Shown here one piece after another: positions 5,633-35,307 of a stretch of 42,796 bases of DNA. The stretch is from Patescibacteria group bacterium (GTDB lineage Bacteria > Patescibacteriota > SICC01). The number at the start of each line of letters is the position of its first letter. The stretch's first letter is position 1. The DNA is taken from positions 1 to 42,796 of the forward strand of contig SICC01000002.1 in the NCBI GenBank assembly GCA_009694835.1, read 5' to 3'. Position numbers and translations under genes: made by a program. Below the pieces are notes generated by a model. It worked only from the letters and a program-made list of their open reading frames with translations. It had not been told where the DNA came from and ran no database searches.

Positions 5633-6949
5633 ATGACAACGAAGAAATCATCAGACGATACTCCCGCCAAGCCGGTCTCCGGTTTCGCTAAACTGCTCGA
5701 CGCGGCTGAGCCGCCGGTGCTGCAGGTTGGTGAAGTGTTGGATGCGACTATCATCGCCAAATCCAAGAATGAAATTTGGGTTGATTTAGGTGGCGTGGCT
5801 ACGGGTTACGTTCCCGCTCGTGAAATTGGTGACGGTCGTTCATTCGATAGTCTCAAAGAAGGTGATGCGATTCATGCTTCCGTGGTCAATCGAGAAAATG
5901 ATGATGGCTACGTCGTCCTATCAATCAAGCGTGCCGCTCGTGACCGTACCTGGGTCGACCTGGCCGCTCTCTTTGAAACCAAGGATTCATTCCCGGCCAA
6001 AGTCCTTGAGGCCAATACTGGCGGGTTGCTGATGGACGTAAGCGGCGTTCGCGGATTTTTACCGGTCTCGCAATTAGCCCCGGAACACTATCCACGAGTA
6101 TCCGGCGGCGATCGCGACTTGATCCTCGAAAAGCTCGGTAAGTTTGTAAATAATGACTTAACCGTGCAAATACTCGACTTTAATCAAACGGACAACAAAC
6201 TGATTCTGTCTGAGAAGCTGGCCCGTACCAAGGAGACAGAAGCTAACTTATCGAAGTATGAAGTAGGCGATGTCGTCAAAGGTAAAGTTACTGGCGTCGT
6301 CGACTTCGGTGCGTTTGTTAGTTTTGCTGAAGGTCTAGAAGGTCTGGTTCATATTTCAGAAATTGACTGGAACCGAGTCGATGATCCTCGTCAGCACGTT
6401 AAAGTCGGCGACGAGATCGAAGCCAAGATTATTAGTATTGAAGGACCGAAGGTCTCACTCTCGCTAAAGCGGATGAAGGACGATCCGTGGGTCAAAGCCG
6501 CCGAGAAGTATAAGCCTGGTCAAAAGGTTAAAGGAAAGATTGCTCGCGCCACACCGTTTGGAGCGTTTGTTGAACTGGATGAAGATGTCTCTGGACTCGT
6601 TCACGTTTCGGAACTGTCTGAAGAGCATGTCGAGAATCCGCTCGATGTGGTGAAAATCGGCGACGAAATGGAATTCTTAGTACTTGAGATTGACGCCAAT
6701 GCGCATCGCATCGCCTTGAGCGTGAAAGGTTTGACCGACCCTGAAAAGGCCGTCAAAGAACGACAGCAGGCCGCGTCCAAACCAGCCGTCGATGACGTTA
6801 GTAAATTGTCTGCTGGTGTACTCAAAAAACTGTCCGATGCTGGCTACGGTGACATGGCCAAACTGAAGGCGGCGACGATCGAAGACCTCGAAGCCGTCCC
6901 GGGGATCGGTAAAGTCAGCGCCGAGAAGATCAAAAAGACTTTGGGATAA
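5633..6949 (+). CDS. rpsA: 30S ribosomal protein S1 (four S1 domains) with a C-terminal helix-hairpin-helix tail
   Basis: 438 aa. Repeated S1 motifs (GEVLDATII.., GDVVKGKVTGVVDFGAFV.., GQKVKGKIARATPFGAFVEL..GLVHVSEL). The C-terminus reads LEAVPGIGKVSAEKIKK. Confidence 0.9.
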   Translation: MTTKKSSDDTPAKPVSGFAKLLDAAEPPVLQVGEVLDATIIAKSKNEIWVDLGGVATGYVPAREIGDGRSFDSLKEGDAIHASVVNRENDDGYVVLSIKRAARDRTWVDLAALFETKDSFPAKVLEANTGGLLMDVSGVRGFLPVSQLAPEHYPRVSGGDRDLILEKLGKFVNNDLTVQILDFNQTDNKLILSEKLARTKETEANLSKYEVGDVVKGKVTGVVDFGAFVSFAEGLEGLVHISEIDWNRVDDPRQHVKVGDEIEAKIISIEGPKVSLSLKRMKDDPWVKAAEKYKPGQKVKGKIARATPFGAFVELDEDVSGLVHVSELSEEHVENPLDVVKIGDEMEFLVLEIDANAHRIALSVKGLTDPEKAVKERQQAASKPAVDDVSKLSAGVLKKLSDAGYGDMAKLKAATIEDLEAVPGIGKVSAEKIKKTLG

Positions 6950-15028: not shown

Positions 15029-15501
15029 GCGGCTTCTGGCGTGGCGTCCACATCGAGTCCGACCGCTTCGAATAAGTGTTTCTGGTTCTCGCCCCGCTGC
15101 GCCCAAAGCCAGGTAGCGAGTTCTCCGATACCCTTGTTATCCCCGATAGACTGACCCTTTTCTTGCGCGTGATCGTAGTCTTTTTGTCGCTCACGCCTCT
15201 TGGCGGGTCCATTACGATGTTTCCGAATTTTATCCGTTCGTTCATCGCTCCCGACCTTTTCACTTCGTGCTTGATCGTACTGATCCACGAATACCGCTAG
15301 TTCCGTGCCGCCTTTCTCAATAAACTCCTGGTATTCATGGTCGACTCGCAATACTTTTCTGGCTGCTAAGTATAGTTGGCCAAGGTTACCTTCGGGATCT
15401 GCGAGTAGTTCCTCAATTTCCTCGCCCTTGTCTTCGGCGATGCGCTCACCCCGTTGCAGGGGCGCTTCGTCTACGGTTGGGTTTTCGCTTCGCGTTGCCA
15501 T
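15025..15501 (-). CDS. hypothetical highly charged soluble protein
   Basis: The ORF track gives 15025..15540. I trimmed it to ATG 15501 (MATRSENPTVDE...), 158 aa. It is K/R/E/D-rich, has no hydrophobic segment, and I recognise no family. Confidence 0.5.
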   Translation of the reverse strand: MATRSENPTVDEAPLQRGERIAEDKGEEIEELLADPEGNLGQLYLAARKVLRVDHEYQEFIEKGGTELAVFVDQYDQARSEKVGSDERTDKIRKHRNGPAKRRERQKDYDHAQEKGQSIGDNKGIGELATWLWAQRGENQKHLFEAVGLDVDATPEAA

Positions 15502-15543
15502 GCTTGTGCGTATAATTACTATTACGACACCATACTGCAAGGT

Positions 15544-17286
15544 ATGTTAAAAAGCAAGTCAACCATGGGTACAATTACTACACCAGCACCGAGATGGACT
15601 ATCGCCAAGCCGGCTCCAACAGAGCTGTTCGAGGCGTTTCCGGAGTATCCACGGCCAATTGTGCAGATGCTGTTTAATCGGGGCGTTACGGCCGATGAAG
15701 CTATTACGAATTTTCTTGATCCTGTGTACCCACGAGATTTACACGATCCGTTAGCCCTTGGTGGGGTCAAAGAAGCGGTGGAGATCATCAAGCAAAGCAT
15801 TGCGGACAGTGAACGAATCGTCATTCACGGAGATTATGATGCGGACGGGTTAACCGCCACCGCACTACTACTGGACGTTCTCACCCAACTTGGGGCTAAT
15901 GTTTCATCGTTCATTCCAAATCGCTACGAAGAAGGGTATGGAGTGGCGGCGGCCACACTCAAAAAACTGCGGGCAGAAAAGGCTGACTTGGTAATCACGG
16001 TCGACTGCGGCATCTCTAGTGCGGTAGAAATCGCTGCAGCCCGGAAAGCTGGGTTAAAGGTTATCGTGACCGATCACCACACCGCCCCAAAAAATATCCC
16101 CAAAGCCGAAGCCGTCATCAACCCGAATCAACCAGGGGATACCTATCCAAACAAAGCTCTTACTGGAGCTGGGGTAGCTTTTAAGTTAGCCCAAGCGCTA
16201 CTGCTTAAATATGTCTCTGACGAGAAAAAGCGAGACGCGGCCGAAAAGTGGCTGCTCGACTTAGTGGCAATTGGAACCGTAGCCGACATGGCCGATCTTC
16301 GCGGCGAAAATAGAACGCTGGTGAAGTACGGATTGGTCGTACTGAAACAGAGTCGTCGACCAGGATTACGCCATTTACTTCGCACCGCAGATATTGCGCC
16401 CGAGAAGCTTACAGCTCGCAGCATCGGCTACAGTATCGGGCCGCGACTAAATGCTCCAGGAAGACTTGGTCATGCTAACGAAGCCTTGGCTTTGCTTACT
16501 ACTCATGATGACGGAGAAGCGCGCGGGCTGGCTTTCAAGCTAGACACCTACAATCGCGAACGACGACAGGTGACTTCGGGTGCGGTTGAAGAGGTTGAAC
16601 AGCAACTACCAACATTGACCGATAACGATCGGATTATTGTCATTGATGGGGCTTGGCAGTCGGGCGTGGTTGGATTGATTGCCGGTCAATTATCGCGTGA
16701 GTATTCTCGTCCAGCCGTTGTGATTGAGCGAGGGGAAACCATATCGCGAGGCTCCGTTAGAAGTATTCCTGGGTTTAACGTGGCCAAGGCTCTCCAGGCC
16801 CATCAATCGTTACTGCAAACGTATGGGGGTCACGCCGGGGCCGGAGGATTTTCAATTAGCACCAACAAACTTGAACGGTTCCGTATAAAATTGGAGGAGT
16901 TTGCGCGACAAACGCTCTCCGCCCGCCAACTTCGACCTACGTTAGAGATCGAGGCCGAGCTCTTATCGAAAGATTTGAATTGGGAGCTCCTCGATCGGCT
17001 AAGTGCATTTGAACCGTTTGGTATTGGTAATACTGAACCGAACCTGCTACTTACTGTCGTAATTGTTCAAGATATTTCAGTAGTCGGGCAAGATGCCAGC
17101 CATCTGAAGCTGGTCGTTCAGCCTCAGGGCGGTGAGCGGCTAACCGTTCTAGCATTTGGGATGGCCAAACGAAGGGACGAGCTAGCTGTTGGTAAACCAA
17201 TTGATCTCGTCGGCCGCCCAGTTACTAATGAATTCAACAACCAAAAATCATTGGAGTGGCATGCCTCGGACTTCCGTACCACGTGA
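15544..17286 (+). CDS. recJ: single-stranded-DNA-specific exonuclease RecJ
   Basis: DHH motifs (IHGDYDADG, VDCG, TDHH) and DHHA1 (GGHAGAGG). The start is uncertain: ATG 15544 or 15565. The track's 15454 start would overlap the divergent gene. Confidence 0.88.
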   Translation: MLKSKSTMGTITTPAPRWTIAKPAPTELFEAFPEYPRPIVQMLFNRGVTADEAITNFLDPVYPRDLHDPLALGGVKEAVEIIKQSIADSERIVIHGDYDADGLTATALLLDVLTQLGANVSSFIPNRYEEGYGVAAATLKKLRAEKADLVITVDCGISSAVEIAAARKAGLKVIVTDHHTAPKNIPKAEAVINPNQPGDTYPNKALTGAGVAFKLAQALLLKYVSDEKKRDAAEKWLLDLVAIGTVADMADLRGENRTLVKYGLVVLKQSRRPGLRHLLRTADIAPEKLTARSIGYSIGPRLNAPGRLGHANEALALLTTHDDGEARGLAFKLDTYNRERRQVTSGAVEEVEQQLPTLTDNDRIIVIDGAWQSGVVGLIAGQLSREYSRPAVVIERGETISRGSVRSIPGFNVAKALQAHQSLLQTYGGHAGAGGFSISTNKLERFRIKLEEFARQTLSARQLRPTLEIEAELLSKDLNWELLDRLSAFEPFGIGNTEPNLLLTVVIVQDISVVGQDASHLKLVVQPQGGERLTVLAFGMAKRRDELAVGKPIDLVGRPVTNEFNNQKSLEWHASDFRTT

Positions 17287-19168
17287 GATAAAGACGGCCC
17301 GCCTAGGTTTATTTAAGGTGCTACCAGATCGTTTATCGGCAGCGGATAAAAGGCTTCTAGAGGGGGCAATCGCACTTGCTGAAAAGGGACATGAAGGTCA
17401 GCGCCGCGGAACAGGTGAACCGTATCTCTGTCATCCGTTAGCAGTGGCTACTATTCTGGCCGAATGGAAACTGGATACCCCAACAATTGTGGCGGCCCTC
17501 CTTCATGACCTACCGGAAGATACTGCCATAACCCTGGAAGAAATTAAGAGCACGTTTAATCCGGAAATTGCTGGATTGGTTGAGTCAGTTACCAAATTGA
17601 GTGCAGTCAGAATTCCCCAAGAAGACATCACCTATGAAGTTGAAAACTTACGTCGGCTTTTTCTGGCTATGGCTCAAGATATCCGCGTGGTGCTATTAAA
17701 GCTGGCTGATCGGCTCCATAACGCCCGAACGATTAATGGCATGGCCGCGGCCAAGCGAGCTCGCTACGGGCGTGAAATTTTAGAAATTTACGCGCCGTTG
17801 GCTGACCGGCTCGGGATGGGAGAAGTTCGCTTTGAGCTATCTGAGATTGGATTTCAGCACGCCGACCCTAAAGCCCACGATTGGACACGAACGCAGGCAC
17901 AGGCCGGTCTGAAGAGGAGTGAACAGTACTTAAACCGCGTAAAGCACGATTTTGTTAAAGCTATTGCCGAGGAAAACATTACGGCCACTATTGATGCTCG
18001 AGCCAAGAACACCTACAGCCTCTACCGAAAGCTAGTTGAAAAACAGCGGGACATTAATCAAATTTACGACCTCCTAGCGATTCGGATTATTGTTGATACG
18101 GTCGAAGATTGTTACCAATGTATGGGAATTATCCACCGTCAGTGGCAACCGTTGCCGCATCGGATCAAGGATTACATTGCGGTCCCTAAGCTGAACGGCT
18201 ACCGCAGCCTACATACGACCGTATTTGGTCCGGACAATAAGTTGCTTGAGGTTCAGTTTCGGACCTGGCAAATGCACGAGGAGGCCGAGCTTGGGGTAGC
18301 TGCTCACTCAATGTATGAGCAGTCTAAGAAATCAGCCATTGCTAGCCCGGAGCATATGGCCGTAATGAAACAGCTCAAGAGTTGGCAGGATGAAATGCAG
18401 GAGTCGGCTGACATTATGCAACGCTTCAAACTTGATCTATTTTCTGACCGCATTTTTGTCTTTACGCCAAAAGGCGCGTTGTATAGCTTGCCGGCTGGAT
18501 CAACCTCAATTGACTTTGCCTACGCTGTTCATACGGAAGTAGGAAATCGGTGCCGTGGTGCCAAGGTTAATGGCGTCATCGTGCCGCTGGATGAAGCTTT
18601 GCATAACGGCGCGGTAGTGGAAATTATGACTCGCACCGACGCCACCCCAAAGCAGGACTGGTTGAATTCCGCCCGAACCGGGCATGCCCGCTCTTCAATC
18701 AAGCGCTACCTCCGGGACCAGACCAGCGGCCACGCCGTTTCAACTGGACGAACCGCCCTCAACAAAGCCTTACAAGCGCACAAGACAACCCTTTCCAAAG
18801 TGCCGGCCGCCAAAATCAATGAGTTAATCGGCGAAACTCATGGTGCCCGAGATCTCGACTCGGTTCTGCGACGGATTGGAGAAGGGACCTTAACGATTCA
18901 GACGGCCGTAAAGCGATTAGGGTTCGCTTCTAAGCCAATGGTCCGCGGTAAACGCACCGCCCGAAGACGTCCGGAAGCTAAGCGAGCCTATGTTGATGGT
19001 GAACCGGCCCTCGCGACCAAACTAGCGGCTTGCTGCAAACCGAAGCCAGGAGACCGGATTGTCGGGTACGTTACCGTCGGCCGGGTGATTACCGTTCACG
19101 CCGAGGGATGTACGCACTTAAAACGTTCCGCCGACCCGAGTCGCTTAGTGTCGGTGGCCTGGGCCTGA
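17261..19168 (+). CDS. rel: bifunctional (p)ppGpp synthetase/hydrolase, RelA/SpoT family
   Basis: HD domain (HPLAVATIL..LHDLPEDT), synthetase domain (YRSLHTTV), TGS domain (VFTPKGALYSLPAGSTSIDFAYAVH) and a C-terminal ACT-like domain. Start chosen at ATG 17261, preceded by GGAG, so there is a 26-nt overlap with recJ. Confidence 0.88.
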   Translation: MPRTSVPREIKTARLGLFKVLPDRLSAADKRLLEGAIALAEKGHEGQRRGTGEPYLCHPLAVATILAEWKLDTPTIVAALLHDLPEDTAITLEEIKSTFNPEIAGLVESVTKLSAVRIPQEDITYEVENLRRLFLAMAQDIRVVLLKLADRLHNARTINGMAAAKRARYGREILEIYAPLADRLGMGEVRFELSEIGFQHADPKAHDWTRTQAQAGLKRSEQYLNRVKHDFVKAIAEENITATIDARAKNTYSLYRKLVEKQRDINQIYDLLAIRIIVDTVEDCYQCMGIIHRQWQPLPHRIKDYIAVPKLNGYRSLHTTVFGPDNKLLEVQFRTWQMHEEAELGVAAHSMYEQSKKSAIASPEHMAVMKQLKSWQDEMQESADIMQRFKLDLFSDRIFVFTPKGALYSLPAGSTSIDFAYAVHTEVGNRCRGAKVNGVIVPLDEALHNGAVVEIMTRTDATPKQDWLNSARTGHARSSIKRYLRDQTSGHAVSTGRTALNKALQAHKTTLSKVPAAKINELIGETHGARDLDSVLRRIGEGTLTIQTAVKRLGFASKPMVRGKRTARRRPEAKRAYVDGEPALATKLAACCKPKPGDRIVGYVTVGRVITVHAEGCTHLKRSADPSRLVSVAWA

Positions 19169-27684: not shown

Positions 27685-30078
27685 GTGCCCAAAACTGACA
27701 CAGCGGCTACGCCATCATCCACCCGCAAAACTGATTCGAAGAAAATCTTAAAGCAGACAGCGCTTGATAAGCCGATTGAGGTTGAGAACGGCACCGTCTT
27801 AGAGGGTATTCGCAAAAAAGTCTTCATGGATCGCTATTCCTGGAAAGACGGCAAAGGTAACCCAATGGAGCAGCACCCGGAACAGATGTGGGGCCGCGTC
27901 GCTAAAGCCCTGGCCCAAATCGAGACCCCTAATCAGCAAAAACATTGGGAGAAGAAGTTTTACGAAGCCATGGAAGGATTCAAGTTTGTCCCAGCCGGAC
28001 GAATTTTGTCTGGGGCTGGCACGGGCCACCAAGTGACGTACTACAACTGCTTTGTGCTTCCGTCACCAGAAGACAGCCGCGGCGGCATTATCGACAATCT
28101 CAAGGATATGATCGAGATTATGTCGCGAGCCGGCGGCGTTGGTATCAACCTAAGCTCACTGCGACCGCGCGGGGCGCACATCAAGACCGTTAACGGCACC
28201 AGCTCAGGTCCCATCCCATGGGCGGAACTCTATTCTGTCGCGACCGGCCAGGTTATTCAGCAAGGCGGTTCTCGCCGCGGTGCCCTGATGTTGATGATTA
28301 ACGACGACCACCCAGACGTAGAGGAGTTTATTACGGTTAAGCAAGACCAGGGTAAATTGACTGGCGCCAACCTGTCCGTCTGCGTGTCTGACAACTTTAT
28401 GAAAGCGGTCAAGGAAGACGCCGACTGGGATCTGAAGTGGGAAGGTAAAACTATGAAGACGGTCAAAGCTAAAGATCTCTGGGGTAAGATTTGCGACTCC
28501 GCCTGGGCCTCAGCTGAACCGGGACTTCACTTTATGGAGCGTTCTAACAAGCGTTCAAACACCTGGTACTACGAGAAATTGATTTCAACCAACCCGTGTG
28601 GTGAGCAGCCGCTCGGGGCCTGGGCGGTCTGTAACCTCGGTGCGCTTAACCTTTCGAACTTTGTGGTCGGGGGCACAATGGATTACGAAATGCTGGCCGA
28701 CCATTCCCGAACCGCCATTCGCGCCCTCGATAACGTCGTCGACGCCAACTACTACTTCTTCGAAGAGAACGAGAAGCAGCAGATGGGCACCCGCCGCACC
28801 GGCCTCGGTACGATGGGACTCGGTGACGCACTGATTAAGATGGAAGTTCGTTACGGTTCGGAAGAATCATTGCCGGTCATTGAAAAGATTTACAAGACCA
28901 TCCGCGATGCGGCCTACGATGAATCCGCCGAAATCGCTAAAGAGAAGTCACCGTTCCCGATGTTTGATCGCTCCAAGTACTTGAAAGGTCATTTCATCAA
29001 GCAACTACCAAAGGCGGTCCGCGAGAAGATCAGCAAGTATGGCATCCGAAACGCTGTCCTCTTAACCCAGGCTCCAACCGGCACGACCTCCTTGGTCTCC
29101 GGTGCCAGCTCGGGCATTGAGCCGGTCTACGACTTCGCCATGAAGCGCAAGGATCGCACCGGTGAGCACATTCTGTACCATGAGCTCTACAAGACCTGGA
29201 TTGATGAGCACCCAGACGAGGAAGTTCCGGACTTCTTCGTCAGCGCTAATGATTTGACCCCGCTCGAACACGTCAAAGTTCAGGCCAAGATCCAGGATTA
29301 CACTGACAGCTCGATTTCTAAAACCGTCAACGCTCCAAATGACCACACCGTCGAAGACGTCCGTGAGCTCTACGAAGCGGCCTACGACATGGGACTCAAG
29401 GGCGTAACCTACATGCGAGACGGCTCACGAGAGGGTGTCCTGGAGCATATTCCGAAGGAAGGCGAGAAGAAGGCAGAGGAACCAGTCGCTGTGGTTACCC
29501 CGCAAGCTTCACCAACCCCGGCTCCACGACCACAAGTCCTGGAAGGGAAGACGGTCCGGATGGTGACGGCCTACGGCAAGATGTACGTCACTATGAACGT
29601 CGATACGCAAGGTAACCTGATTGAAGTCTTTGCCACCCTTGGTAAGGCTGGCGGACTCGGGGCCTCGATGACCGAAGCGATTACTCGATTAATTTCGACC
29701 AGTCTGCGCGCCGGTGTTTCGCCGCGAGCGATCATTAAGGAGCTCCGGGGCATTACCGATCAACCGTTCGGATTCGGTGACAACCGAGTCAGCAGTGTGG
29801 CTGACGCCGTCGGTAAGGCCATGGAAGACTACCTGTACCCGAAACTCGACTTATCAGTGTCCGAGCCAGTCAAGGCCGAGTTGCCAGTCGATGCGGCTTC
29901 CCAAGCCGCCGAAGCTGATGCCAAGGCCGCTGAAGCTGCCGCCACCCAACAGCCGCACGCTATCTCGATGGACTCCACTAGTAAGTTGGCCGGGATCTGC
30001 CCGGATTGCGGTGGGCCGCTCGAGTTTGCCTCGGGTTGTAAGGTCTGCCACTCCTGTGGATATTCAGCCTGTGGCTGA
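27685..30078 (+). CDS. nrdJ: adenosylcobalamin-dependent (class II) ribonucleotide reductase
   Basis: 797 aa, GTG start after AAGGAG. Active-site motif TNPCGEQPL, and a C-terminal Cys-rich tail CPDCGGPLEFASGCKVCHSCGYSACG. Confidence 0.92.
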   Translation: MPKTDTAATPSSTRKTDSKKILKQTALDKPIEVENGTVLEGIRKKVFMDRYSWKDGKGNPMEQHPEQMWGRVAKALAQIETPNQQKHWEKKFYEAMEGFKFVPAGRILSGAGTGHQVTYYNCFVLPSPEDSRGGIIDNLKDMIEIMSRAGGVGINLSSLRPRGAHIKTVNGTSSGPIPWAELYSVATGQVIQQGGSRRGALMLMINDDHPDVEEFITVKQDQGKLTGANLSVCVSDNFMKAVKEDADWDLKWEGKTMKTVKAKDLWGKICDSAWASAEPGLHFMERSNKRSNTWYYEKLISTNPCGEQPLGAWAVCNLGALNLSNFVVGGTMDYEMLADHSRTAIRALDNVVDANYYFFEENEKQQMGTRRTGLGTMGLGDALIKMEVRYGSEESLPVIEKIYKTIRDAAYDESAEIAKEKSPFPMFDRSKYLKGHFIKQLPKAVREKISKYGIRNAVLLTQAPTGTTSLVSGASSGIEPVYDFAMKRKDRTGEHILYHELYKTWIDEHPDEEVPDFFVSANDLTPLEHVKVQAKIQDYTDSSISKTVNAPNDHTVEDVRELYEAAYDMGLKGVTYMRDGSREGVLEHIPKEGEKKAEEPVAVVTPQASPTPAPRPQVLEGKTVRMVTAYGKMYVTMNVDTQGNLIEVFATLGKAGGLGASMTEAITRLISTSLRAGVSPRAIIKELRGITDQPFGFGDNRVSSVADAVGKAMEDYLYPKLDLSVSEPVKAELPVDAASQAAEADAKAAEAAATQQPHAISMDSTSKLAGICPDCGGPLEFASGCKVCHSCGYSACG

Positions 30079-30129
30079 TATTAAATAGTCGCCTGTGGCT
30101 GATACCAGCACTTAACAAACCTCTTTATG

Positions 30130-30250
30130 TACGAACGCCGGGAAAGCGCTGTGAGAATCAGCCGCGGTCCCGCCACTGTGATTCCGTCACCTTTTGTAGA
30201 CGTCAGAAACGGCAAAAGATAACGGATAAGTCAGAGCACCGACGTTCCGC
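30130..30250 (+). promoter_or_regulatory. cobalamin (B12) riboswitch aptamer
   Basis: P1: GAACG (30133-30137) with CGTTC (30243-30247). Core: GGGAAAGCGCTGTGAGAATCAGCCGCGGTCCCGCCACTGTGA (30140-30181). Nested helices TCCGT/ACGGA and CTTTTG/CAAAAG. B12-box-like AAGTCAGAGCACCG (30228-30241). Confidence 0.8.
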
Positions 30251-30324
30251 ATTACTTCACCCGACCTACGGTCGATAGGTCCAGGGATTACTCCTGGATA
30301 GGGGTATTTTTTTAATCAAAAACC

Positions 30325-32106
30325 ATGACACCACCAGAAACACTCACCAGAATAGAAACCGGGCTATCACTCGATGAATTCAAGGAATCAGTTCGAGCCG
30401 TCATCGAGACGCACCCTGGTATCTCTCCTGAGCTTCGCTCGTACATGCTGCCGTCCGTCGATCGTTTAACTCAGATCGAGCCGAACCCGGAGGCATTTAC
30501 CCTCAGTGATCTCGAACACTTCGACCGACGACGGTCAGAAATTGAGTCGGAATATTCGAATCGGATGAGCGAACCAGGTATCTACTACGACGGGAACTTT
30601 GCAGCCGACGTCGAAGCTTGGCTTTCTGGGGATGTGTCGACGACTCGCGCCACGATTGAATCGCGCTTCCGAAGGGCCACCGAAGATGAAGAACCTGAAC
30701 GACTAAGTGGTGGACAAGCAAGACTCACTCAACCGGAACGAGCTCGAACGCCTGTTACGATGGCAGCAACACGCGGAGTAACTTCTGGCCGTGAAGACAA
30801 GACTGATGAACGAAAAACTGTTCATAATGTGGATGAATTTTCTTTAGAGCGTGAGGAAATACCAGTTGGTCAGGGGGAACAGCCGTTGCTTGACTGGGGA
30901 CCGATAACATCGCGTTTACTCAGGCTTCGGGCTGATCGCGCTTCAATCCAAGAGCGCATTCTTTTAGAACGGGGATTGGCCAGCAAGCAGTTTCCACCTC
31001 CAGAACTTTTGGACCGGGCGGATCGAATTGCCGACGTCGAGCAGTCGCCCATTGTCACCAAGCCAGAACCACGCGAAGATACTAGCGATACCAAATCACC
31101 TCAACCGGAAGAAACTGATTATGAACAACCACCTCCTATTGAACTTCATCGATCTGCTGGCGATAACCCTCCAGCTACTAATCATCGTCCGGGTGATCAT
31201 GAGTTGGCTGCGACCGAACCCGACCAGTCCGATTGGGAGGTTCTTGTTGGAGGTGACGGATCCGATTCTGAAACCGTTTCAGATGATTCTTCCCTCGGTG
31301 GCGGGGCTCGACTTCAGCCCGATTCTGGCCTTGATTACGATCCAAGTACTCCAGAGCTTGGCACAGAATTATCTGTAATTAAAGAAAACTCATCGCGAGA
31401 CATTGTCCTCTGGGAATTCCCCGAAGCCGAGGAACCCGCTAGGATAGAAGCCAGTATGGAGCAGACCGAAACGTATGAACAACTTACCGGACAAACTGGA
31501 TCAGATTTGGAACCACGCCGCCGACCGGGGGCCGGACGTCTTAGTGACCTTAGTGGTCGGATTCATCGTGGTCGAGGTGACCATAGCAATCCTGCGCTAC
31601 CTGTTCCGGGTCTCGAATCTGCCAATCGGCTTGAAGCGGATCCTGTTCTCGCTGATCCGAGTCTTCCTCTGGTTGATTCTCTTCCTGGTGATAGTCCAGA
31701 CGCTGGGTCTGAACAGCCTGCTGGTGGCCGTGACCGGCTCGTCAGTGATCGTGGCGATCTTCCTAGCCCCAGGGCTCGGACCGATGGTCCAGGACGTCAT
31801 CGCCGGCTTGTCGCTGGCCAGCGATCGGTTTTATCAACCCGGAGCCAAGGTCGTGGCCGGGGACAAACAGACGGAGGGCACCATCGAGACGCTCGACTTA
31901 CGCAAGACCAAGATTCGGGATTCGAAGGGGAAACTGCACGTCATTTCCAACTCCCAGATCGATCGCGGGGAGTGGGTAGCCTTAGAACCGAACGAGCCCG
32001 CATTGAAGCGGCGCCGCAGGTTAGCTACGCTACTAAAGAAGAAGCGTTAGACCTGTCATCACCAGGGATGCTGTCGGCAGAAATCCTGATTCCCTCAGGA
32101 GAGTAG
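30325..32106 (+). CDS. ORF of unknown family (acidic, low complexity); true 3' extent uncertain
   Basis: 593-codon open frame. The first ~265 codons have no competing ORF and show a G-rich first codon position (many GAA/GAT/GAG/GCC). The remainder overlaps yggT and the MscS-like gene in another frame and ends inside the ileS T-box leader. Confidence 0.4.
   Translation: MTPPETLTRIETGLSLDEFKESVRAVIETHPGISPELRSYMLPSVDRLTQIEPNPEAFTLSDLEHFDRRRSEIESEYSNRMSEPGIYYDGNFAADVEAWLSGDVSTTRATIESRFRRATEDEEPERLSGGQARLTQPERARTPVTMAATRGVTSGREDKTDERKTVHNVDEFSLEREEIPVGQGEQPLLDWGPITSRLLRLRADRASIQERILLERGLASKQFPPPELLDRADRIADVEQSPIVTKPEPREDTSDTKSPQPEETDYEQPPPIELHRSAGDNPPATNHRPGDHELAATEPDQSDWEVLVGGDGSDSETVSDDSSLGGGARLQPDSGLDYDPSTPELGTELSVIKENSSRDIVLWEFPEAEEPARIEASMEQTETYEQLTGQTGSDLEPRRRPGAGRLSDLSGRIHRGRGDHSNPALPVPGLESANRLEADPVLADPSLPLVDSLPGDSPDAGSEQPAGGRDRLVSDRGDLPSPRARTDGPGRHRRLVAGQRSVLSTRSQGRGRGQTDGGHHRDARLTQDQDSGFEGETARHFQLPDRSRGVGSLRTERARIEAAPQVSYATKEEALDLSSPGMLSAEILIPSGE
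31121..31378 (+). CDS. yggT: YggT/YlmG-family membrane protein
   Basis: 85 aa from ATG 31121. The sequence LLIIVRVIMSWLRPNPTSPIGRFLLEVTDPILKPFQMILPSVAGLDFSPILALITIQVL matches the YggT signature (..SW.....NP......T.P.L.P.R...P..G.D.SP...). A position upstream of ileS is typical for ylmG. Confidence 0.85.
   Translation: MNNHLLLNFIDLLAITLQLLIIVRVIMSWLRPNPTSPIGRFLLEVTDPILKPFQMILPSVAGLDFSPILALITIQVLQSLAQNYL
31475..32050 (+). CDS. short MscS-family mechanosensitive channel-like protein
   Basis: 191 aa. Three TM segments, then the MscS pore-helix/beta-domain pattern LAPGLGPMVQDVIAGLSLASDRFYQPGAKVV..GTIETLDLRKTKIRDSKGKLHVISNSQI. It lacks the usual C-terminal alpha/beta domain. Confidence 0.7.
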   Translation: MNNLPDKLDQIWNHAADRGPDVLVTLVVGFIVVEVTIAILRYLFRVSNLPIGLKRILFSLIRVFLWLILFLVIVQTLGLNSLLVAVTGSSVIVAIFLAPGLGPMVQDVIAGLSLASDRFYQPGAKVVAGDKQTEGTIETLDLRKTKIRDSKGKLHVISNSQIDRGEWVALEPNEPALKRRRRLATLLKKKR

Positions 32107-32205
32107 AGCCGACCGGGACGGCCCGTTACAGCCTGAGTAAGCGCCCCGTCACCGGGGAATCGAGGTGGTACCGCCCTGATAGAACGGGGCCCTCGAACCA
32201 CTCGA
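32052..32205 (+). promoter_or_regulatory. T-box leader of ileS
   Basis: T-box sequence AATCGAGGTGGTACCGCC (32158-32175), preceded by hairpin CCCCG-tcac-CGGGG (32144-32157). Upstream stem GTCGGC (32073-78) pairs with GCCGAC (32108-13) and has an AGAGTAGA internal loop. ATC (Ile) triplets at 32058-60 and 32083-85. A competing helix forms between 32160-32169 and 32197-32205, just before the ATG. Confidence 0.7.
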
Positions 32206-32211
32206 TTTGCT

Positions 32212-35200
32212 ATGCCTAAGAAAATCACGATTATTGCTCCGAAAACTAACGTCTCGTTCCCGAAGCTGGAACAAGATGTCTTGAAACTTTGGAAAAAGGA
32301 AGGGACGTTTGAACAAAGTCTCAAGCAGACTAAGAAAGGGAAACGCTTTACGTTCTACGATGGGCCACCGTTTGCGACCGGTTTACCCCACTACGGAAAC
32401 TTGATGCAAGGCATCATCAAGGATACGATCCCTCGGTTCCGGACTATGCAGGGTCGGTATGTTGAACGTCGCTTTGGGTGGGACTGTCATGGCTTGCCAG
32501 TTGAATATGGCTTAGAAAAAGAGCTGGGAATTAAGAATCGTCAAGAGATCCTCGAAATGGGTGTCGGCAAATTCAACGACGCCTGTCGTGCTATTGTCCT
32601 GCGTTACGCCGGCGAATGGCGAGCAATTACCGAACGAATTGGCCGGTGGGTCGATATGGATAACGACTACAAAACGATGGATCCGGATTATATGGAATCG
32701 GTTTGGTGGGTGATCAAGCAACTCTGGGAAAAGGGACTTCTCTATGAAGGTCGCCAGAGCATGCACATCTGCCCGCGCTGCGCTACACCACTTTCCAATT
32801 TTGAGGTGCTCCAAGGCTATGCCGATCGAGATGACCCCGCCGTCTACGTCAAACTACCGCTGCGTCACGATCAAGACGTTTCACTGCTTATTTGGACGAC
32901 GACCCCGTGGACGCTTCCGGGAAACGTCTTGGCGGCCGTTAATAAGCACCTGACGTACGTGGAAGTTGAACACGACGGCCAGCGATTAGTGCTCGCAGAG
33001 TCACGGCTCGCGGCCGTCTTCCCAAATAATGACTATACGTTGCGACGAACCTTACGAGCCGAAGAGCTCATTGGTCAGCAGTACGAACCCCCATTCCCCA
33101 AGCGAAACCTCACCGGGACTAGTTATGAAGTCGTAGCCGCCGATGCCGTCAATGCTGATGAGGGCACCGGCATCCTGCACGTGGCTCCAGCCTTCGGGGA
33201 AGAGGATATGGAGATCGGAAAACGCGAGCAGGCTGCCTTCATTCAGCACATCGACATCACTGGAACGATAACCAACGAGGTGCCGCGCTATCGCGGCCTC
33301 CAGGCTCTGGACGCTAATCAGCAGATTATCGCCGACCTGAAGAAGTCGAAACGGCTGCTCCGATCCGAGACCATCCGCCACAGCTATCCGCATTGCTGGC
33401 GGTGTGAAACTCCGCTGCTTAACTTTGCCACTAAATCCTGGTTCGTAGCCGTAGCGAACATCAAACCAGAATTGTTGCGGACTAACGAGCAGATCACGTG
33501 GCTACCCGAAAGCGTAAAAGACGGTCGGTTTGGTAAATGGTTAGAGGCTGCCCGTGACTGGTCAATTTCTCGTAATCGATTTTGGGGCAACCCGCTGCCA
33601 ATTTGGCGCTGCCCAGACGGTCATCTAACCGTTATTGGTTCACTCGATGAACTCGAAAAACTGTCCGGCAAACGGCCAAAGGACCTTCATAAGCAGTACG
33701 TCGACAAGATTACCTTCGACTGCCCGGAGTGTAATGGGAAGGCGACCCGCATTGAGGATGTCCTCGATTGCTGGTTTGAGTCAGGTAGCATGCCGTACGC
33801 CAAAGAACATTACCCGTTCCAGCATAAAAAAGAATTTGAAGAGTCCTTTCCGGCCGACTTCATTGCCGAAGCCTTAGATCAAACCCGTGGTTGGTTCTAC
33901 ACCCTCCACGTGCTCGGCGTGGCACTCTTTGACTCGCCAACGTTTAAGAACGTCGTCTCAACCGGTATCATCGTCGCCGAAGATGGGCAGAAGATGTCAA
34001 AGAGTAAACAAAACTACCCCGATCCGGACAAGGTCTTGGATAAATACGGGGCGGATGCTCTGCGGCTCTACATCCTTTCATCTCCAGTGGTACGCGGTGA
34101 CGATCTTCGGTTCCGCGAGAAGGGGCTTGAGGAAATTCAACGCAACTTTGTTTCGACGCTCTACAACGTCTACTCGTTCTTCACGACCTACGCCGCGGTC
34201 GACGAATGGAGCCCGCCAACTAAACCATCGCGACAAACGAATGTGCTCGACCAATGGGTTACCTCACGGCTCAACTCGCTGACCAAGGAAACTACCGAGG
34301 CTCTCGAGCAGAATGACTTGATGACCGCCAGCCGCGGCCTGATGAGCTTCCTCGATGAACTTTCAAACTGGTACGTCCGCCGTAGTCGCCGGCGCTTCTG
34401 GAAATCGGACAGCGACACTGACAAGGAACAGGCCTACGCCACGCTCTACACCGTCCTGACGACGTTTACCCGGCTAGCAGCGCCCATTACGCCGTTTATC
34501 ACCGATCACCTCTACCGTGAGCTGACAGGGAAGAGTGTTCACTTGGCGGAATGGCCGACGGCTACTGGATCTAAAGTCGATTCAGACTTAGAGCGACAGA
34601 TGTCAGTGGCGCGCCAAGTGGTCCGGCTCGGATTGGCCGCTCGGACCCAAGCCGGCATCAAAGTTCGCCAACCAGTGGCAGAAGCTACCGTGGTAGATCG
34701 AATCAAGTCAGGTATCGTTAAGAATAAATCTATTGTTCAATTAGTCTCTGATGAATTGAACGTAAAGAAGCTCGCGTTCATTACCAAAGAGTCTGGTTTC
34801 GTCAAAGAAGTTATTCAGCCCGTCCCGTCAGAAGTGGGACCGCTGTTTGGCCGCGAAGCCCAGCAGGTGATCGAGGAGATTAAGGCCGGAAAGGTTCAGC
34901 GAAAAGGCCAGAAGGTCTTTGTTCGAGGTCGCGAACTTCCCGAGGATGCGGTTCGAGTGACCTGGGCTCCGGTTGGTGACTTGGTTGTCGAAAGTTCCGC
35001 TGACGTGGTGGTCGCTATCAATCCCGACTTAAACGAAGACTTAGTCGATGAAGGCCGCGCCCGCGAATTGATTCGAGCCTTCCAAGAATTGCGAAAGTCA
35101 TCTGGCCTGGATGTGTCTGATCGGATTACCGCTACCGCCGAAACAGACAATCCCGATTTGGAGCGAATGCTCGATGCCCATCACGACTTGATTGCGACGG

Positions 35201-35307
35201 AGATTCTCGCTCAGTCGCTTGAGCAAGCCTCGAGTGCGGGTGACAATACAAAGTCAGTGCAGATTGATGACAAGACTGTGTCGATTTCCTTGAGCAAAAT
35301 CTCCTAG
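32212..35307 (+). CDS. ileS: isoleucine--tRNA ligase
   Basis: 1031 aa. HIGH-type motif (PHYGN), KMSKS, and a CP1 editing domain. Confidence 0.96.
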   Translation: MPKKITIIAPKTNVSFPKLEQDVLKLWKKEGTFEQSLKQTKKGKRFTFYDGPPFATGLPHYGNLMQGIIKDTIPRFRTMQGRYVERRFGWDCHGLPVEYGLEKELGIKNRQEILEMGVGKFNDACRAIVLRYAGEWRAITERIGRWVDMDNDYKTMDPDYMESVWWVIKQLWEKGLLYEGRQSMHICPRCATPLSNFEVLQGYADRDDPAVYVKLPLRHDQDVSLLIWTTTPWTLPGNVLAAVNKHLTYVEVEHDGQRLVLAESRLAAVFPNNDYTLRRTLRAEELIGQQYEPPFPKRNLTGTSYEVVAADAVNADEGTGILHVAPAFGEEDMEIGKREQAAFIQHIDITGTITNEVPRYRGLQALDANQQIIADLKKSKRLLRSETIRHSYPHCWRCETPLLNFATKSWFVAVANIKPELLRTNEQITWLPESVKDGRFGKWLEAARDWSISRNRFWGNPLPIWRCPDGHLTVIGSLDELEKLSGKRPKDLHKQYVDKITFDCPECNGKATRIEDVLDCWFESGSMPYAKEHYPFQHKKEFEESFPADFIAEALDQTRGWFYTLHVLGVALFDSPTFKNVVSTGIIVAEDGQKMSKSKQNYPDPDKVLDKYGADALRLYILSSPVVRGDDLRFREKGLEEIQRNFVSTLYNVYSFFTTYAAVDEWSPPTKPSRQTNVLDQWVTSRLNSLTKETTEALEQNDLMTASRGLMSFLDELSNWYVRRSRRRFWKSDSDTDKEQAYATLYTVLTTFTRLAAPITPFITDHLYRELTGKSVHLAEWPTATGSKVDSDLERQMSVARQVVRLGLAARTQAGIKVRQPVAEATVVDRIKSGIVKNKSIVQLVSDELNVKKLAFITKESGFVKEVIQPVPSEVGPLFGREAQQVIEEIKAGKVQRKGQKVFVRGRELPEDAVRVTWAPVGDLVVESSADVVVAINPDLNEDLVDEGRARELIRAFQELRKSSGLDVSDRITATAETDNPDLERMLDAHHDLIATEILAQSLEQASSAGDNTKSVQIDDKTVSISLSKIS

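Follow-up and report, generated by a model that had tools for sequence, protein, structure and literature searches.

Gene order and reading frames at the locus

The stretch of DNA analysed here, the first 42,796 nucleotides of contig SICC01000002.1 (GenBank assembly GCA_009694835.1) from a Patescibacteria group bacterium, is referred to at its full length as the window. On its forward strand, like all features described around it, lies a 593-codon open reading frame (ORF) which starts with an ATG at position 30325 and ends at position 32106, and which contains two further genes, yggT and a gene for an MscS-like protein (mscS), in a different frame of the same strand. This ORF and the family to which it belongs, both called X in the following, are the subject of the present analysis. 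X consists of a conserved N-terminal part, of which residues 1 to ~255 (30325..31090) have homologues detectable by profile match and alignments, and of a putatively overprinted acidic tail. The 85-codon yggT (31121..31378) and the 191-codon mscS (31475..32050) are both shifted by +1 relative to X and lie wholly within it, and they are separated by a spacer of 96 nt (31379..31474). Upstream of X is nrdJ (27685..30078), coding for a B12-dependent ribonucleotide reductase of class II that ends in a TSCPD domain, as indicated by the Pfam matches to Ribonuc_red_lgC (395 bits) and TSCPD (67 bits) as well as by synteny. Downstream is ileS (32212..35307), which served as a control for codon usage and divergence.

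This geometry had been described in an earlier note made from the sequence alone, and the ORF list, the map of stop codons and the Pfam matches agree with it. The X frame is free of stops from 30313 to 32104, as against 19 and 52 stops in the other two forward frames between 30200 and 32300. As the note had stated, it also stays open across the spacer, which is open in the X frame alone and whose X-frame translation consists to 28% of aspartate and glutamate, and it stops only at 32104-32106, which is 56 nt beyond the mscS stop and within the ileS leader. Likewise, the two other off-frame ORFs of more than 200 codons noted before are antisense to ftsZ and ftsA. The doubly coding DNA would accordingly amount to ~834 nt (258 + 576) in the window and to ~914 nt in the related locus L089, and the entire read-through of X into the downstream genes to ~980 nt and up to ~1170 nt, respectively. 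The open run in the overlapped part of X comprises ~328 codons. For comparison, the 26 other window ORFs of 150 aa or more stay open in this relative frame for at most 105 codons.

The two nested genes are genuine and under purifying selection, as is evident from their Pfam matches, homologues of equal length and conserved synteny. YggT scores 68.3 bits (E = 8e-19) against the Pfam profile YGGT (PF02325, cut-off 27), and its orthologues, which are 46-75% identical, are free-standing proteins of 85-86 aa encoded upstream of mscS-ileS, so that its family membership is indicated by profile score, length and gene order alike. For the MscS-like protein, the beta domain is the sole Pfam match (MS_channel_2nd, 29.5 bits, cut-off 20.2); the NCBIfam MscS models give 15.5-32.7 bits against cut-offs of 321-596, and the full MscS architecture is therefore lacking by these models. 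Because of this beta-domain-only match, and because its length of 191 aa compares with model lengths of 260-741 positions, it is called a short MscS-like protein here. It has transmembrane helices and a beta domain without the C-terminal alpha/beta domain and ends in the basic sequence KRRRRLATLLKKKR; this short form is kept in 20 homologues (184-194 aa, 47-65% identity), whose source names, where given, point to Patescibacteria.

Conservation of the arrangement in syntenic relatives

Among the syntenic relatives, two gene orders can be distinguished. In type A, represented by the loci L083, L084, L088 and L090 and a JGI contig without DNA, the order is ftsZ-nrdR-nrdA-nrdB-yggT-mscS-ileS-ftsW-rplU-parA-parB, and X is absent. 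In type B, comprising the window and five further loci, the order is ftsZ-nrdR-nrdJ-(riboswitch)-X-yggT-mscS-ileS. In each of these five loci nrdJ is followed by a long ORF homologous to X (E = 3e-5 to the window, 2e-11 to the homologue P0025 described below), which enters yggT in the same relative frame as in the window. The ORF extends over 3929..5848 in L089 (639 aa, ending inside ileS), 3827..5719 in L095 (630 aa), 3755..5677 in L096 (640 aa) and 3905..5716 in L097, which is the same as L098 (603 aa), the latter three ending past mscS, and over 2595..4544 in L094 (649 aa), where it ends 60 nt into mscS. For the relatives, alignment was used to assign the start codons of X, yggT and mscS. 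Of the scans for further loci, one of genome contigs with IleS returned only relatives of at most 51% identity, which were of no help for synteny, and one of metagenomes with MscS returned four loci, with L094 alone being both new and long enough to use.

The X frame is therefore open through yggT in six of six type B loci and through all of mscS in five of them (593-640 aa), with its stop lying 56-293 nt past mscS or, in L094, inside it. This is the comparison which the earlier note had proposed, and relatives with stops soon after ~31100 but with intact yggT and mscS, which it had named as evidence for a tail that is open by chance, were seen in none of the six X loci. In L089, the X frame meets no stop for 293 nt beyond mscS; it crosses the leader of ileS and enters that gene by 98 nt (5751..5848), so that ileS would be a third overlapped gene.

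With respect to phylogeny, the window IleS is 71-73% identical to that of type A but only 57-59% to that of the other type B loci, which in turn are 56-59% identical to one another with the exception of the group L089/L095/L097; YggT and MscS identities give the same relationships. Since the window is nearest to type A by IleS and yet distant from its fellow type B loci, the overlap-bearing type B appears to be the older state, and type A seems to have lost nrdJ, riboswitch and X. Following this loss, the former X frame would have gained stops and the spacer would have shrunk. Type A loci carry the class I genes nrdA-nrdB exactly where the window has the class II gene nrdJ, the riboswitch and X, so that a swap of the ribonucleotide reductase class coincides with the gain or loss of X.

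Public annotations do not represent the locus as a whole. One assembly calls the 593-aa X (P0001) and another yggT and mscS, but in the records compared the three are never called together. In the gene tables of the type B relatives X is never called, and one table lists a spurious off-frame ORF of 225 aa; a gap of ~900 nt or a spurious ORF is found in its place in L095 (3861..4538), L089 (3720..4617), L096 (3495..4614) and L097 (3722..4653).

The X protein family

A search with the whole ORF returned two relatives of 529 and 547 aa, and a profile search run exhaustively over 1.84 billion representative proteins, with three matches at E ≤ 1e-3 (the window's own P0001, P0002 and P0025), added one more of 518 aa (P0025); none was found among the GTDB species representatives. 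In the window X, homology is confined to residues 1 to ~255 (profile match 1-255). All three relatives, however, have acidic tails of their own, of 270-300 residues and a net charge of about -50, and contain neither yggT nor mscS in the other frames of their DNA. Homology between the overlapping and the non-overlapping tails could not be demonstrated (BLASTP E = 0.24 for the window tail against that of P0003). By alignment, X is composed of a helical domain (~10-120) and a second, conserved helical segment (~190-240), which are joined by a basic linker of low complexity, and AlphaFold2 on a four-sequence alignment predicts a helical domain at residues 10-120 (pLDDT 70-88) and disorder elsewhere.

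In keeping with the earlier description of the upstream acidic protein as unassignable, X has no sequence match in Pfam, NCBIfam or PDB, and the structure-prediction search suggested there for its conserved part yielded no significant relative, as Foldseek of the AlphaFold2 model against PDB returned nothing below E = 1. The same note had related X by gene position to the sepF/ylm genes found ahead of ylmG. This link is not supported, as X has no significant Pfam or NCBIfam match and no sequence similarity to SepF or Ylm proteins; only YggT, which is YlmG-like, belongs to that group.

P0025 is encoded in L085 (9492..11919; also in L086 and L087) between a gene for a free-standing TSCPD-domain protein and a gene for a VKOR-like protein, and no riboswitch was detected at this locus. 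TSCPD being the terminal domain of NrdJ, X is tied to TSCPD/NrdJ in this second context, too. X is thus a tiny orphan family, linked to cobalamin riboswitches and to nrdJ/TSCPD.

Depletion of stop codons in the overlapped genes

The openness of the X frame was compared with a null model in which the YggT and MscS proteins were held fixed and their codons redrawn from the usage of the flanking genes of the locus (one to four per locus) or of the window; codon-pair bias was ignored, and control genes calibrate the model. For the window mscS, 7.6-8.8 stops are expected but none is observed, with a probability of an open frame (P) between less than 5e-5 (0 of 20,000 draws) and 4e-4, the latter for 7.6 expected stops. 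No stop is found in the other mscS genes covered by X either, where 6.0 are expected in L096 (P = 1.6e-3), 3.4 in L089 (P = 0.025), 2.05 in L095 (P = 0.11) and 1.9 in L097 (P = 0.14). The depletion is strongest in the window and in L096, which are the two X loci of lower G + C content. In turn, mscS genes not covered by X carry stops in the corresponding frame: six in L094, where X ends early (4.3 expected), and one, nine, four and four in the X-less loci L083 (1.8 expected), L084 (5.0), L088 (2.3) and L090 (1.0), respectively. For the shorter yggT, the window has no stops against 1.8-2.1 expected (P = 0.08-0.10), and the frame is open in six of six covered loci against 0.34-1.8 stops expected. 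Both signs looked for in an overlapping gene were found, namely an openness beyond that predicted by codon usage and a frame that is kept together with X and lost without it.

What keeps the frame open is the scarcity of T at third codon positions of yggT and mscS. In the window mscS the frequency of T there is 0.073, compared with 0.21 in the flanking genes and 0.23 in ftsW, which also codes for a membrane protein, and the third-position G + C content (GC3) is 0.74 in yggT and 0.79 in mscS compared with 0.62 in the flanking genes. The earlier note had considered a compositional artefact, and it is in fact by third-position composition, with little T, that stops are avoided. However, this composition is itself anomalous relative to the neighbouring genes, and the anomaly goes together with the presence of X; the composition therefore seems to result from selection and not to be the cause of the open frame.

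The spacer between yggT and mscS is 9-20 nt long in type A, and 18-20 nt in the X-less loci used for comparison, but 96, 87, 63, 78, 87 and 222 nt in the six X loci, where it is open in the X frame alone. All six lengths are multiples of 3, which argues that length changes kept the X frame. Identity in the spacer favours codon positions 1 and 2 over position 3, but as the underlying alignment is protein-based this was given no weight.

Charge and length of the tail product

The net charge of the X-frame product was compared with its mean over recodings that leave the YggT and MscS proteins unchanged. All 11 genes covered by X give a product more acidic than its recoded counterparts, the difference amounting to 5.4-16.3 charges per 100 codons (z between -1.5 and -4.7). 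In the control genes (nrdJ, nrdA, nrdB, ileS and ftsW) the shift ranges from -4.8 to +2.8 and is mostly within ±2.5, and in the uncovered mscS of L094 it is +2.5. Summed over yggT and mscS, type B loci have an X-frame net charge between -10 and -22, and type A loci one between +3 and +10. A weak shift (+1.9 to -5.9) is seen in the type A genes, which may be a relic of a former overlap. The acidic X-frame product fits selection for an acidic tail, as judged from these comparisons, like that present in the non-overlapping homologues. Total lengths, too, are similar, with 593-649 aa for the overlapping and 518-547 aa for the non-overlapping members. Finally, synonymous divergence between the window and L089 has reached the composition null, i.e. 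saturation, so that the open frame is not merely inherited in the absence of selection.

RNA elements

Between nrdJ and X, a cobalamin (adenosylcobalamin, AdoCbl) riboswitch-like aptamer is found at 30114..30290, scoring 43.2 bits (E = 5e-6) on RF01482, just below its cut-off of 50, and containing the B12 box GCCACTG (30172..30178). It is followed just before the X start by a terminator-like hairpin with a run of seven T (30289..30313; consensus scan and sequence), the probable expression platform of the riboswitch. At the same position, the riboswitch scores above the RF00174 cut-off of 31.5 in L089 (50 bits), L096 (41) and L097 (39.4), and reaches 47.1 bits on RF01482 (cut-off 50) in L094, while a covariance-model scan detected none upstream of X in L095. 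Upstream of the 529- and 547-aa homologues (L001 and L002), at the contig ends, the 3′ half of such an aptamer is present as well. Accordingly, the order nrdJ-riboswitch-X recurs in L089, L096, L097 and L094, and riboswitch-X also in L001 and L002. For a B12 switch, both the location just downstream of a B12-dependent nrdJ and the target, an orphan gene, are unusual.

At the other end of X, the ileS leader (32038..32197) is T-box-like, with 39.5 bits (E = 1.2e-6) on RF00230 and the motif GGTGGTACCGC aligned. The frame had been described as ending in stem I of a T-box leader, and the location holds, although the leader falls short of T-box membership (cut-off 93): the T-box motif and the 3′ helices align, but the leader has 11 nt in place of ~80 model positions of stem I. 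The stop codons of X and mscS both lie within this leader. Throughout the 42.8-kb window, all Rfam families stay below their curated scores, so that tRNA, rRNA and other known RNA genes are absent at that threshold. Elsewhere in the window, two ORFs of 610 and 659 aa on the same strand (15454..17286 and 17189..19168), both listed with TTG starts, overlap by 98 nt, which is probably an issue of start-codon assignment and not a true overlap.

Evaluation of alternative explanations

Taken together, the 593-codon frame is probably a real protein-coding gene, X, with its last ~330 codons overprinted on yggT, the spacer and mscS, as judged by comparison of the sequences. Of the possibilities raised in the earlier note, the comparison favours that of a genuine protein, overprinted or extended, as the frame is open wherever X is present and decays where X is absent or ends earlier. 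The note had also envisaged an assembly indel, or a programmed +1 shift near 31028..31120, where frames 1 and 2 are both open, by which the end of a ~260-aa gene would be hidden. An event of this kind, including a sequencing indel or the creation of an X-YggT fusion, has a negligible probability. Contigs from seven public freshwater-metagenome runs of four studies (2019-2024) show neither substitutions nor indels over 30000..32300; five of the runs cover most of this region and two (X6 and X7) are represented by short fragments only, and several of the contigs span 31000..31130. As these independent contigs are identical, an assembly indel is excluded; moreover, the same layout is present in five other assemblies. 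Nor is a programmed shift needed, because homology of X to its relatives stays in frame 1 to ~residue 255 (nt 31090), and the YggT orthologues are not fused to anything. Also disfavoured, and quite improbable, is that X really ends after ~260 aa and that the frame stays open only because yggT and mscS are hydrophobic with G/C-rich third positions, the tail being unselected. Permutation of synonymous codons within the genes does give P = 0.043 for mscS and 0.27 for yggT in the window and 0.16 and 0.83 in L089, and X-less relatives rich in G + C have just 1-4 stops per gene in this frame. However, the third-position anomaly relative to the neighbouring genes is confined to genes covered by X, the frame is open in all six X loci while five of five uncovered mscS genes carry stops, the spacers come in multiples of 3 and the X-frame product is shifted towards acidity; furthermore, with synonymous divergence saturated, the lineages of lower G + C content should have gained stops.

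Two further explanations accept that the segment is constrained but do not invoke the tail peptide. It is unlikely, although less so than the preceding ones, that the act of translating the X frame is what is selected, with the peptide as a by-product, translation either coupling or occluding yggT and mscS initiation or preventing premature termination, so that B12 status would control the membrane-protein genes. The missing residue-level conservation of the tail, the variable position of the X stop and the location of riboswitch and terminator upstream of the whole block are in line with such a role; however, it accounts neither for the acidic skew that arises from synonymous choice, nor for the acidic tails of similar length in the non-overlapping members, nor for the total length, which stays at 593-649 aa despite the changed layout of L094. 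A constraint unrelated to X translation, be it at the RNA level, by a mutational bias of the segment or by recent transfer of yggT-mscS from a donor richer in G + C, would explain the raised GC3 of the two genes. It is very improbable, since YggT, MscS and IleS identities are concordant and no transfer is therefore apparent, and the anomaly recurs in independent lineages and, in L094, stops exactly at the end of X.

Several observations nevertheless weigh against a translated, selected tail. All support for translation of the tail of X is comparative, a search for RNA runs having yielded none, and it comes from only about four independent lineages. The codon usage in the null model is that of one to four flanking genes at each locus, with codon-pair bias disregarded, even if controls calibrate the model, and in three G + C-rich loci the open frame alone is not significant. 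Conservation of the tail residues between the window and L089 does not exceed what is expected from yggT/mscS and composition (z = 0.4-1.6). While the synonymous divergence of mscS is reduced to 0.60-0.65 of the null in pairs of X loci (0.84-0.95 for ileS and ftsW), this is not decisive, because the X-less pair L083-L088 behaves alike (yggT 0.66, mscS 0.67). The end of the protein looks arbitrary, as the X stop lies in the T-box leader or, in L089, inside ileS. Lastly, the model gives no account of how yggT and mscS would be expressed with a riboswitch terminator upstream and with ribosomes passing over them in the X frame.

Proposed evolution and implications

We consider it rather likely that an orphan gene of Patescibacteria under the control of a B12 riboswitch has moved its acidic, disordered tail of ~330-400 residues onto an alternative frame of yggT, the MscS-like gene and the spacer between them, and that this state is deeply conserved. 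In such a scenario, an ancestral X with its own tail, like the 518-547-aa homologues, might have lost its stop codon and then been extended stepwise into the downstream genes, with the DNA for its own tail being lost. L094, with 473 non-overlapping codons and an overlap with yggT, could represent an intermediate. The tail would act by its length and charge and not by its exact sequence, AdoCbl would switch X off through the upstream riboswitch and terminator, and translation of yggT and mscS would start internally.

If true, this means that a reduced genome can compact protein segments of low constraint onto other genes, and the locus bears on the limits of coding compaction by genome reduction in Patescibacteria, on the origin of new coding sequence by overprinting outside viruses and on the evolution of disordered tails. 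If the tail is translated, X would offer a clean, comparatively testable case of ~0.8-0.9 kb of same-strand double coding in a bacterium, with natural controls built in, namely a sister clade without X and a lineage in which X stops earlier. Annotation pipelines forbid long overlaps and are therefore unable to represent such a locus. Finally, the analysis draws attention to an uncharacterised protein family that is linked with cobalamin riboswitches and with the class II ribonucleotide reductase.

Comparison with known systems

Known targets of cobalamin riboswitches are B12 transporters, biosynthesis genes and B12-independent isozymes. Like these regulons, most members of the X family are preceded by an aptamer with a B12 box and then a terminator-like hairpin; X, however, resembles none of the known targets, and its switch lies directly downstream of the gene for a B12-dependent reductase. 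Overlaps that result from the loss of a stop codon usually measure a few to tens of nucleotides, in contrast to the read-through of ~1 kb at the X loci. The origin proposed for X is nonetheless the same, as unidirectional overlaps were described to arise by stop-codon loss of the upstream gene, which then reads into the downstream gene (PMC3887535).

Same-strand nesting of out-of-frame genes, with expression shown experimentally, has been described for rnpA-rpmH of Thermus (Feltens et al. 2003, as summarised in PMC9841429). According to this summary, Thermus, too, has a conserved gene that is nested at its full length within a longer gene of the same strand, and one mRNA is thought to serve both, but the nested gene is a single small ribosomal-protein gene at the 5′ end, with a shared initiation site (PMC9841429). 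X, in contrast, harbours two membrane-protein genes and a spacer in the 3′ part of an orphan gene, and the evidence for it is comparative.

In bacteria, the long overlaps known to have both selection and expression data behind them are antisense. The overlapping genes olg1 and olg2 of Pseudomonas aeruginosa, 957 and 1728 nt long, are described as the longest with extensive experimental evidence (PMC8850804). They share with X an overlap of ~1 kb or more, an argument from purifying selection and an overlapping product that evolves much faster than the host gene, but they are antisense, each within a single gene, young at the genus level and supported by ribosome profiling and mass spectrometry (PMC8850804). 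X differs in lying on the same strand, in spanning two genes and a spacer, in extending an older protein and in being found across IleS identities of 56-59%.

In viruses, overprinting yields disordered proteins (PMC8227390; bioRxiv 10.1101/229690). Like there, the newer frame of the X loci is of low complexity, probably disordered and weakly constrained, with the older frame keeping its family signature (PMC8227390; bioRxiv 10.1101/229690). Unlike there, X belongs to a cellular, reduced genome, and what is overprinted is a C-terminal tail that replaces or extends an acidic tail, not a wholly new protein. A literature search on overlapping genes in Patescibacteria found nothing, and we know of no longer same-strand overlap reported in bacteria, should that of X prove true. 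Compared with these systems, the X overlap would be a new, extreme variant, on the same strand, covering two conserved genes and the spacer between them, and present in deep lineages of a reduced-genome phylum.

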